DNA of 15,832 bases from a virus (taxonomy: Duplodnaviria; Heunggongvirae; Uroviricota; Caudoviricetes). The translations under genes were made by a program, and so were the position numbers. This document shows positions 14,511 to 14,585 of the stretch, one piece after another. The DNA lies in the IMG/VR virus record IMGVR_UViG_2675903609_000009; one strand, 5' to 3'. Below the pieces are notes generated by a model, which was not told where the DNA came from, did no database searches, and worked only from the letters and a program-made list of their open reading frames with translations. Position 1 is the first letter of the stretch. Each line of letters begins with the position of its first letter.

Positions 14511-14560
14511 TTGTTCGTAGTTGTTCCGCTTTGTTGCTCATTGTTGCACGTTGTATCTGT
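14511..14560 (+). repeat. Five tandem 10-bp units beginning TTGTT (TTGTTCGTAG, TTGTTCCGCT, TTGTTGCTCA, TTGTTGCACG, TTGTATCTGT); candidate protein-binding array
   Basis: Read directly; exact 10-bp phasing; lies between the integrase stop and the alpA promoter region. Confidence 0.6.
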
Positions 14561-14569
14561 TCGCATATC

Positions 14570-14585
14570 CAGTATGCGCATACTG
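14570..14585. promoter_or_regulatory. Perfect 16-bp palindrome CAGTATGCGCATACTG, candidate operator
   Basis: Read directly; sequence equals its reverse complement; immediately 3' of the integrase stop, adjacent to the TTGTT array. Confidence 0.5.

Follow-up and report, generated by a model that had tools for sequence, protein, structure and literature searches.

The window, by which we mean the whole stretch of 15,832 nucleotides analysed here, holds a phage satellite of E. coli integrated directly after phoQ, with all of the island genes on the minus strand. A collinear element, 'prophage Sp7' of E. coli O157:H7 Sakai, occupies the same phoQ–roxA site; it corresponds in Sakai to EcCIEDL933, on which the capsid-forming PICIs are modelled as their prototype (cf-PICIs; bioRxiv 10.1101/2022.09.08.507074). 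The open reading frame map and the Pfam assignments place an int–alpA–primase module beside genes for the island's own capsid, protease, portal, connectors, HNH protein and TerS/TerL; tail and lysis genes are absent and there is a dedicated att site. This layout agrees with the published description of cf-PICIs (bioRxiv 10.1101/2022.09.08.507074), and on its sequence the window is an Sp7/EcCIEDL933-type capsid-forming PICI beside phoQ. The genes that matter for the following are:

1–1461, plus strand: phoQ
About 8912–2553, minus strand: HK97-type capsid/protease/portal/connector/HNH/TerS/TerL module; the capsid gene starts at 8912
12066–10318, minus strand: D5-type primase
14040–14228, minus strand: alpA, encoding a winged-helix protein of 62 aa (Pfam Phage_AlpA, PF05930, E = 5e-18)
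14603–15832, minus strand: int, encoding a P4-type tyrosine integrase with an N-terminal arm-DNA-binding domain (Arm-DNA-bind_3)

The capsid gene of the window contains an in-frame TGA. Near matches to the spacer between int and alpA were found in 731 of 5,426 complete E. coli genomes. No Rfam family attained its gathering score at any position of the window, and the matches between 12800 and 14700 did not exceed chance level, which rules out a known RNA in the int–alpA region.

A phased repeat between int and alpA

Three features lie in the spacer between the two genes:

14290–14318, minus strand: predicted alpA promoter, TTGCCA-17-CACAAT with a TG extension
14511–14560, plus strand: array A, five 10-bp units, TTGTTCGTAG TTGTTCCGCT TTGTTGCTCA TTGTTGCACG TTGTATCTGT
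14570–14585: perfect 16-bp palindrome, CAGTATGC/GCATACTG, in full CAGTATGCGCATACTG

Four units of array A carry TTGTT and one carries TTGTA, at a spacing of exactly 10 bp; Tandem Repeats Finder detected 14520–14554 as a degenerate array of period 10. The pattern TTGTT-N5-TTGTT-N5-TTGTT, with at most one mismatch allowed, matched five times in the window, compared with 0.00 expected from 200 dinucleotide-preserving shuffles. An earlier note on this DNA, made from the letters alone, had described five phased TTGTT units between int and alpA; these results confirm the repeat, and the Pfam and domain assignments bear out the identity of the two neighbouring genes. That note missed both the recurrence of the array elsewhere in the island and its orientation, which is antiparallel to int and alpA.

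Array A lies 43–92 bp downstream of the int stop codon, 283–332 bp upstream of the alpA start and ~230–280 bp upstream of the predicted alpA promoter. In 11 relatives the −35 element of this promoter does not vary, and across a 10-nt indel a −10 element is kept at the correct spacing. The −10 element is also the reverse complement of a proximal, antiparallel TTGT unit, and in EcCICFT073 the promoter-proximal units attain the threshold that we used for arrays. The distance from array A to the promoter-proximal unit is 220–224 bp and in one case 232 bp (~21 turns), with too little independent variation to speak for looping. We also considered a plus-strand promoter driven by array A, antisense to int, and rejected it: there is no conserved −35 or −10 element after the array, and the clade of islands with six units has another sequence in the downstream position.

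The conservation of array A was assessed in 12 E. coli loci and 80 IMG/VR loci. A search for the same repeat in related islands, which the earlier note had proposed, showed that array A is retained: five or six units, always antiparallel to alpA, are present in every locus that reaches the region and encodes an AlpA at least 90% identical to that of the window. The exception is L045, in which one core is mutated to TTAT and the chain is split; this is the sole locus with a broken unit. The array is positionally homologous in all loci. Among 19 unique array-A sequences, the TTGT cores vary in 1 of 20 columns (five-unit class) and 1 of 24 columns (six-unit class), and the spacers in 24 of 30 and 22 of 36 columns, respectively (Fisher p = 2e-7 and 6e-6, values that are partly inflated by ascertainment because the arrays were found using a TTGT-weighted matrix). 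Over 178 units, information content is 1.7–2.0 bits at positions 1–4 and 0.3–1.0 bits at positions 5–10, and L012 and L048 have each gained exactly one 10-bp unit. Judged by sequence, this pattern is that of a binding-site footprint and not of recent slippage. The earlier idea that the helical phasing of the array serves cooperative binding by a protein is therefore well supported, as cores are kept, spacers are free to change and units are gained in steps of 10 bp. The repeat is real and conserved, and array A is almost certainly a protein-binding array.

Recurrence at both att arms and before the capsid operon

The same repeat occurs at three further positions of the island, two of them within the window. 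These arrays and their surroundings are:

1460–1469: att core, AAATATGTCC, overlapping the end of phoQ and marking the island boundary
1538–1561, minus strand: doubled 12-bp repeat, GGTGTAGTTAAT GGTGTAGTCAAT, probable integrase arm-type sites
1575–1604, minus strand: array C, three units, TTGTGTCTAT TTGTTCCACG TTGTTTCATA, in the phoQ-side att arm
9080–9107, minus strand: candidate weak sigma-70-like promoter of the capsid operon, TTTACC (9107–9102), 16 nt, TATTCT (9085–9080)
9123–9152, minus strand: array B, three units, TTGTTCGTGG TTGTTCCACG TTGTTCACTG, co-oriented with the capsid/packaging operon
9176–9193, minus strand: intrinsic terminator, AGCCGGAgcaaTCCGGCT followed by a T-run, which closes the upstream replication/PerC unit directly before array B

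Array D, the fourth, consists of four units 50–90 bp upstream of int and lies outside the window; it is present in Sakai Sp7 and in every relative for which the sequence reaches past the int start codon. Arrays B, C and D have 3–4 units each, and array A, with 5–6, is the longest of the four and the only inverted one. The stretch of array B at 9152–9128 on the minus strand, TTGTTCGTGGTTGTTCCACGTTGTT, is identical to units 1–3 of array A at 22 of 25 positions; the copy in array C that was found by the same pattern search, at 1604–1580 on the minus strand, is more degenerate. An unbiased k-mer check led to the same unit: the only 7-mers and 8-mers common to the int–alpA spacer, both att arms and the region before the capsid gene are pieces of it (GGAACAA, ACAACGTG), and shuffled sequences yielded a mean of 0.03 such common 7-mers. 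A scan with a position matrix that was built from the array units found arrays inside the islands only; 110 kb of host flanks yielded none, and neither did 124 kb of other elements (the CFT073 lambdoid prophage, EcCIMP1, P4, a Klebsiella cf-PICI and CP4-57).

The att core was placed by comparison with the empty phoQ–roxA site of K-12 and the right junction of Sakai, and this position puts array C ~110–140 bp inside the island. A gap of 13 bp separates array C from the doubled 12-bp repeat, which is centred ~85 bp from the att core. In relatives, a second 12-bp doublet is found upstream of int at ~138 bp from the core, and array D is arranged beside it as array C is beside the first (seen in L001, L002, L006 and L103), such that a module of array followed by doublet is present on both arms. 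The doublet varies with the lineage of the integrase (GGTGTAGTTAAT compared with GTGTGGTCAGTT in islands of the L009 type), whereas the TTGT unit does not. From their sequence and by analogy with related elements, the 12-bp doublets are probable Int arm sites.

Before the capsid operon, the candidate promoter begins 15 nt past array B, which places the array at roughly −50 to −80. The promoter scores below the 9/12 cut-off of our promoter scanner, as would be expected if it depended on an activator, and the L009 lineage has an equivalent (TTTACA-16-TATGTT) at a similar distance. The block TTTTGTAAATTAT and array B are conserved together in two cf-PICI lineages that otherwise have different flanks, and PICIs that are not capsid-forming lack array B. 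The earlier note had regarded the int–alpA repeat as part of a control region for int/alpA expression or for excision. This was right in spirit but too local, because the array is also found in the att arms and before the capsid operon, as an island-wide set of operators.

AlpA and other candidate ligands of the arrays

Among the proteins common to all of the islands with arrays, AlpA is the only predicted sequence-specific DNA binder besides Int. A PerC-like regulator was rejected as the ligand, as L006, L007 and L008 have arrays and no annotated PerC gene. The AlphaFold model of AlpA (pLDDT 87) gave as its best fold match the GIsul2 excisionase (8C3T; TM 0.79/0.86), with RdfS, Pukovnik Xis and TorI also listed at lower scores, and AlpA is thus predicted to share the winged-helix fold of excisionases. 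AlpA alleles that are 56–100% identical share the TTGTTC(G/C) unit, and the motif barely differs between them, so that the comparison yielded no covariation of site and protein. A scan of genome contigs with AlpA gave only three loci. In the Klebsiella cf-PICI vB_KppS-Ant, for which AlpA is 47% identical, GTTCAT is repeated five times upstream of alpA and co-oriented with it; elsewhere in this element we found no clear partner sites for this repeat.

The genetics of EcCICFT073 bear directly on this question. This island has the same Int and AlpA proteins as L006, with an AlpA that is 95% identical to that of the window, and it shares the att site of the window. Arrays D, A (six units) and C are all present, as is a weaker three-unit array over the alpA promoter. 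In EcCICFT073, AlpA activates a PalpA reporter and not a Pint reporter, overexpression of AlpA alone leads to int-dependent excision and replication, and helper phages increase alpA transcription (PMC6092414). AlpA must therefore act in the int–alpA spacer and, directly or not, at att, and the TTGT array is the one motif common to the two. It counts against AlpA that the Pint reporter was unchanged (PMC6092414) despite the presence of array D there, and that array B is missing from the PICIs without capsid genes of their own. In the literature that we searched, we found no definition of an operator or DNA target of AlpA in PICIs. By elimination and analogy, we infer that AlpA is the ligand of the arrays.

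The analogy is with the operators of winged-helix recombination directionality factors (RDFs), which consist of direct repeats one turn apart, are bound weakly as single sites and cooperatively in a head-to-tail filament, and serve in recombination at att as well as in promoter control. Proteins with such operators include lambda Xis, 186 Apl, P2 Cox, P4 Vis, Gifsy-1 Xis and Pukovnik Xis (PMC7498355). The 186 Apl protein has seven operators at pR–pL and five at att (PMC7498355), and RdfS binds not only promoters but also attP, beside an Int arm site (PMC11963761). The arrays described here likewise have at least three direct repeats one turn (10–11 bp) apart, with a short core and a loose remainder; copies in the att arms (arrays C and D) adjoin Int arm-type sites; and the element encodes, by Pfam and by model, a small winged-helix protein as the putative cognate RDF (AlpA).

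TorI of KplE1 (CPS-53) is the closest documented case. At attL, its sites read GTTCG-N5-GTTCG-N5-GATCG, with sites 2 nt apart, and abut the −35 element of PintS (PMC2951348); we confirmed the site sequence, ...GTTCGtcatgGTTCGcttcaGATCGTTGACA, in K-12. The exact 10-bp spacing, the position next to Int arm sites and a small winged-helix RDF that also regulates transcription (PMC2951348) all resemble the arrangement here; the unit in our arrays (TTGTTCG or TTGTTCC) holds the GTTC core, and array D is likewise upstream of int. TorI and AlpA are 26% identical over 42 residues, and TorI falls below the Pfam threshold for Phage_AlpA. TorI is a repressor of int, and its sites have been described neither at a late operon nor downstream of int; they number three, compared with arrays that here reach 5–6 units. 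Further removed, 186 Apl and P2 Cox share the dual role of RDF and regulator, 5–7 repeats at att and a promoter, strong cooperativity and weak specificity per site (PMC7498355), but they belong to other protein families, use other units (TTAAAG for Cox) and repress lysogenic and early promoters.

P4 Vis (ORF88) is 47% identical to the AlpA of the window. Vis is required for excision and controls Pint; it is a repressor of PLL, from which it is itself expressed, and an activator of the late promoter Psid. These targets match the four that we propose for AlpA. The attP of P4 is also alike in its 12-bp pairs, annotated as 'attP arm sequence repeat', at ~75 and 134 bp from the core. P4 has no TTGT array, only a three-unit TCCG periodicity recognized by eye beside the int-proximal arm repeat, and it differs in gene order. 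Helper-embedded PICIs have a tandem 12-bp doublet ~81/132 bp from the crossover on both arms, for which the binder was left as Int or AlpA, and no 10-bp arrays were described for them (Tommasini et al. 2023; PMC10111431). That doublet corresponds to the 12-bp doublets here (~85/138 bp) and not to the TTGT arrays. The AlpA antiterminator of Pseudomonas aeruginosa was rejected as a model, as both protein and site are unrelated: it is larger, uses a single GGGACG element between −35 and −10, acts like phage Q and shares with the AlpA of the window only its name and DNA-dependent loading at a promoter.

Taken together, we consider it probable (at roughly 65%) that the TTGT array at 14511–14560 is an operator array for a winged-helix protein that binds head to tail, and that this protein, an RDF and regulator, is most likely AlpA.

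In the main alternative, the arrays would instead, or in addition, dock a helper-phage protein such as an excisionase or Cox-like RDF, with the helper switching on alpA via array A. The P4 record provides a precedent in three tandem 10-bp TTAAAG repeats just upstream of vis, the alpA homologue. These are the Cox boxes, at which P2 Cox switches on P4 (PLL/vis); they are read by the protein of the helper and not of the satellite, which differs from our proposal for AlpA. TorI-type Xis sites (GTTCG at 10-bp spacing) resemble the TTGTTCG unit, helper phages induce alpA reporters independently of SOS, and that of EcCIMP1 partly even in an alpA mutant (PMC6092414, PMC11773190), and cross-talk between PICIs and helper excisionases has been reported (PMC11773190). 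However, AlpA overexpression is enough for the excision and replication of EcCICFT073 without a helper (PMC6092414), and the att-arm arrays therefore need no helper protein. The helpers are also diverse lambdoid phages with unrelated Xis proteins, and neither EcCIMP1 nor the CFT073 lambdoid prophage has such arrays; we regard a helper ligand as unlikely. It is distinctly unlikely that array A works as a cis-acting gate for induction of the satellite, with an inverted, high-affinity site of filament nucleation that is read by an excisionase-type protein of the helper with or without AlpA. If true, this would couple helper excision to satellite induction through shared RDF recognition of GTTC-type repeats, extend the logic of P2 Cox and P4 PLL to the PICI/cf-PICI family and identify the helper inducer; we found no report of a helper-encoded inducer of Gram-negative PICIs.

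Int itself has an Arm-DNA-bind_3 domain, and arrays C and D are found in the two att arms, where arm-type sites usually take the form of short direct repeats. As sites for the N-terminal domain of integrase, the arrays nevertheless fit poorly: separate 12-bp doublets occupy both arms with the geometry of P4 and the helper-embedded PICIs, it is the doublet that tracks the integrase lineage while the TTGT unit stays constant, and arrays are also found far from att, 1.3 kb from the core after int and before the capsid operon. As the doublets fill the positions of Int arm sites, the TTGT arrays are not needed to explain Int binding and are left for another protein, and we consider it highly improbable that they serve as Int arm sites.

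Even less probable is a neutral, slippage-prone repeat, a bent spacer with no ligand or a site for a host response regulator of the ArcA/PhoP/OmpR type. Unit number is polymorphic, as slippage would yield, and host winged-helix response regulators bind direct repeats of 10–11 bp. Against this, the TTGT core is kept while the spacers diverge, the opposite of recent slippage; the arrays occupy four functionally meaningful positions and are absent from the host flanks; and ArcA and PhoP boxes are 11-bp, to which a strict 10-bp period and a TTGTTC unit do not conform.

The perfect 16-bp palindrome that the earlier note had seen between int and alpA is present at 14570–14585. Most islands of the five-unit clade keep it intact, among them L010 and L014, whose sequences diverge immediately before it. 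The palindrome is absent from L006, L007, L103 and the six-unit IMG/VR clade, EcCICFT073 included, and that clade has a sixth TTGT unit at the homologous position. All of the changes seen (three asymmetric single changes, among them the variants CAGTATGCGCATGCTG in Sakai Sp7 (L001) and L061 and CAGTATGTGCATACTG in L022 and L031, the last three being IMG/VR loci) break the symmetry and are uncompensated. Perfect 16-mer palindromes are expected at 0.23 per window, with at least one in 22% of shuffles; another, unrelated one is present at 1671–1686, and no further copy of this palindrome with up to three mismatches was found in the window. A terminator was rejected, as in both orientations the T-run is on the wrong side of the dyad, and the hairpin (only −6.3 kcal/mol on the plus strand and −11.6 kcal/mol on the minus strand) has no U-tail. 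Most probably the palindrome is incidental or a piece of a hairpin in the int 3′-UTR. Its interpretation as a dimeric repressor operator that cooperates with the repeats, for which the perfect dyad and its persistence in close relatives could be cited, is very hard to sustain given its chance frequency, its loss in the six-unit clade, the uncompensated changes, the want of a second copy and the fact that no repressor gene is known in Gram-negative PICIs (PMC6092414).

A proposed model for AlpA and its putative operators

The best reading of array A is as an AlpA operator within a four-site set of this PICI family. The set is an addition to the already known class of RDF operator arrays, and its architecture is as a specialist would expect. 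We propose that AlpA binds head to tail, with one protomer per helical turn, and fills the arrays cooperatively. At arrays C and D, beside the Int arm doublets, AlpA would bend the DNA, shape attL and attR and direct excision; array D would also overlie the int promoter region. Array B, directly after a terminator and ~50–80 bp before a weak promoter, would act as an upstream activator site that turns on the capsid/packaging operon. Array A would be the distal, high-affinity AlpA operator with the longest filament, from which AlpA would control the alpA promoter, and its cooperative filling would give a switch-like response.

The function of array A once it is occupied, which we infer to be autoregulation, is the least secure step of this model, because the array is inverted and far from the promoter and the proximal units overlap the −10 element. 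TTGT units over a −10 element suggest repression as a more natural outcome than the activation that was measured. AlpA has been described as the master switch of Gram-negative PICIs, capsid-forming ones included; whether it acts as an excisionase, an activator or both is unsettled in the literature that we searched.

TTGTTC[G/C]NNN at 10-bp phasing in four positions (both att arms, the capsid-operon promoter and the region upstream of alpA) is a concrete model of AlpA targets that can be tested cheaply, and gives the master regulator of a widespread family of satellites a specific target. The unit also provides an annotation signature for this family of islands and a handle for engineering or silencing these elements. 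In this model, a single protein filament would link excision, autoregulation and late-gene expression.

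Elements flanking array A in the int–alpA spacer

The spacer between int and alpA, in which array A (five 10-bp TTGT units) lies, holds further elements:

14388-14420, + strand: hairpin resembling a terminator, AAAGGCAT-13 nt-ATGCCTTT, with TTTTT after it
14241-14260 and 14421-14440: 20-nt direct repeat, TCGTTTCTTAAAGAGTTATT and TCGCTATTTAAAGAGTGATT, with copies 180 bp apart
14474-14486, + strand: AATCAGCTACTTA, which resembles an IHF site and departs from WATCAANNNNTTR at one position

The hairpin would act on the + strand, antisense to both int and alpA. Most of the 11 relatives in the alignment keep it, with one stem mismatch in L006 and L007 (sister islands that lack the 16-bp palindrome beside array A), and a conserved TTTACA and TAAAAT pair with a 19-nt spacer was found about 50 nt upstream of it. 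Together, the hairpin and this pair may specify a tiny antisense RNA or form an insulator against read-through from int. The 14241-14260 copy of the direct repeat lies directly upstream of the alpA ribosome-binding site, and the CTCTTTAA core of the repeat is mostly kept in relatives. The IHF-like sequence is preceded by an A-tract, lies 25 bp from array A and belongs to an 18-nt tandem pair at 14450-14485.

A second phased array and a palindrome at the phoQ-side end

The opposite end of the island carries two features:

1972-2008, + strand: GTCAC array, TGTCACGGTG TGTCACTGGT TGTCACTCTCC GTCACG, with four GTCAC copies spaced by 10-11 bp
1671-1686: TATGGGGATCCCCATA, a perfect palindrome of 16 bp, within the att arm on the phoQ side and roughly 70 bp past array C (the three TTGT units of that arm)

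The GTCAC array is phased and distinct from the TTGT arrays, and sits between the att arm and the last island gene. It was also found at 6788-6822 in L007, a non-cf PICI with a terminase small subunit. The array superficially looks like a Pho box; it may be a terminase- or cos-binding site. The palindrome is one of two perfect 16-mers observed in the window, against an expectation of 0.23.

Capsid gene, masked stretches and probable replication-origin repeats

Further features lie among the island genes:

approximately 8085-8087, − strand: in-frame TGA in the major capsid gene
4541-4671, 5635-5706 and 9328-9450: runs of N (masked sequence)
10075-10326: clustered short tandem repeats (CCTTATCTA, TCTACCTCCCTG, GGGTAGACAGT and GGTAGACAG) lying close downstream of the primase gene

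When the Sakai capsid protein was compared with the window by tblastn, it matched a single frame (8912-7758) at 98% identity; the list of open reading frames gives the gene as two pieces, 8960-8085 and 8084-7755. The satellite copy may be capsid-defective, the stop may be read through, or the TGA may be a sequencing error. The N runs interrupt terS, a head-completion gene and the region in which relatives encode a PerC-family regulator. The tandem-repeat cluster probably represents replication-origin iterons.

Integration site and alpA-upstream arrays in related islands

L002, a near-identical island in E. coli 2013C-4991, is inserted in tqsA, not at phoQ–roxA. Its spacer is 98% and its AlpA 100% identical to those of the window; its integrase shares 90% identity overall, falling to 77% across the arm-binding region, and the doublet (the doubled 12-bp att-arm repeat) differs slightly (GGTGTAGTCACT). 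Such a pattern suggests that the island changed its integration site recently.

Islands with a second AlpA allele (approximately 56-60% protein identity to that of the window) lack array A. Their alpA-upstream region, and that of a Klebsiella cf-PICI, contain the following:

L009 (second cf-PICI lineage), 15179-15225, and L088, L090, L092 and L099, just upstream of alpA: GC-rich hairpin, then a T-run, directly before the alpA start codon
L019 (vB_KppS-Ant), 7130-7323: three separate 10-bp arrays, CATTCAACAG ×4, CACGTAAYGA ×3 and GTTCAT ×5, in the spacer upstream of alpA

The second-allele hairpin holds two GTTCG motifs, 10 bp apart. It looks like either a terminator or a structure that sequesters the SD, in both cases overlapping candidate AlpA sites. 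The alpA of L019 is 47% identical, and its spacer has phased arrays of its own; phasing of this kind thus seems to be a general feature of arrays upstream of alpA, but their sequence and orientation are lineage-specific.
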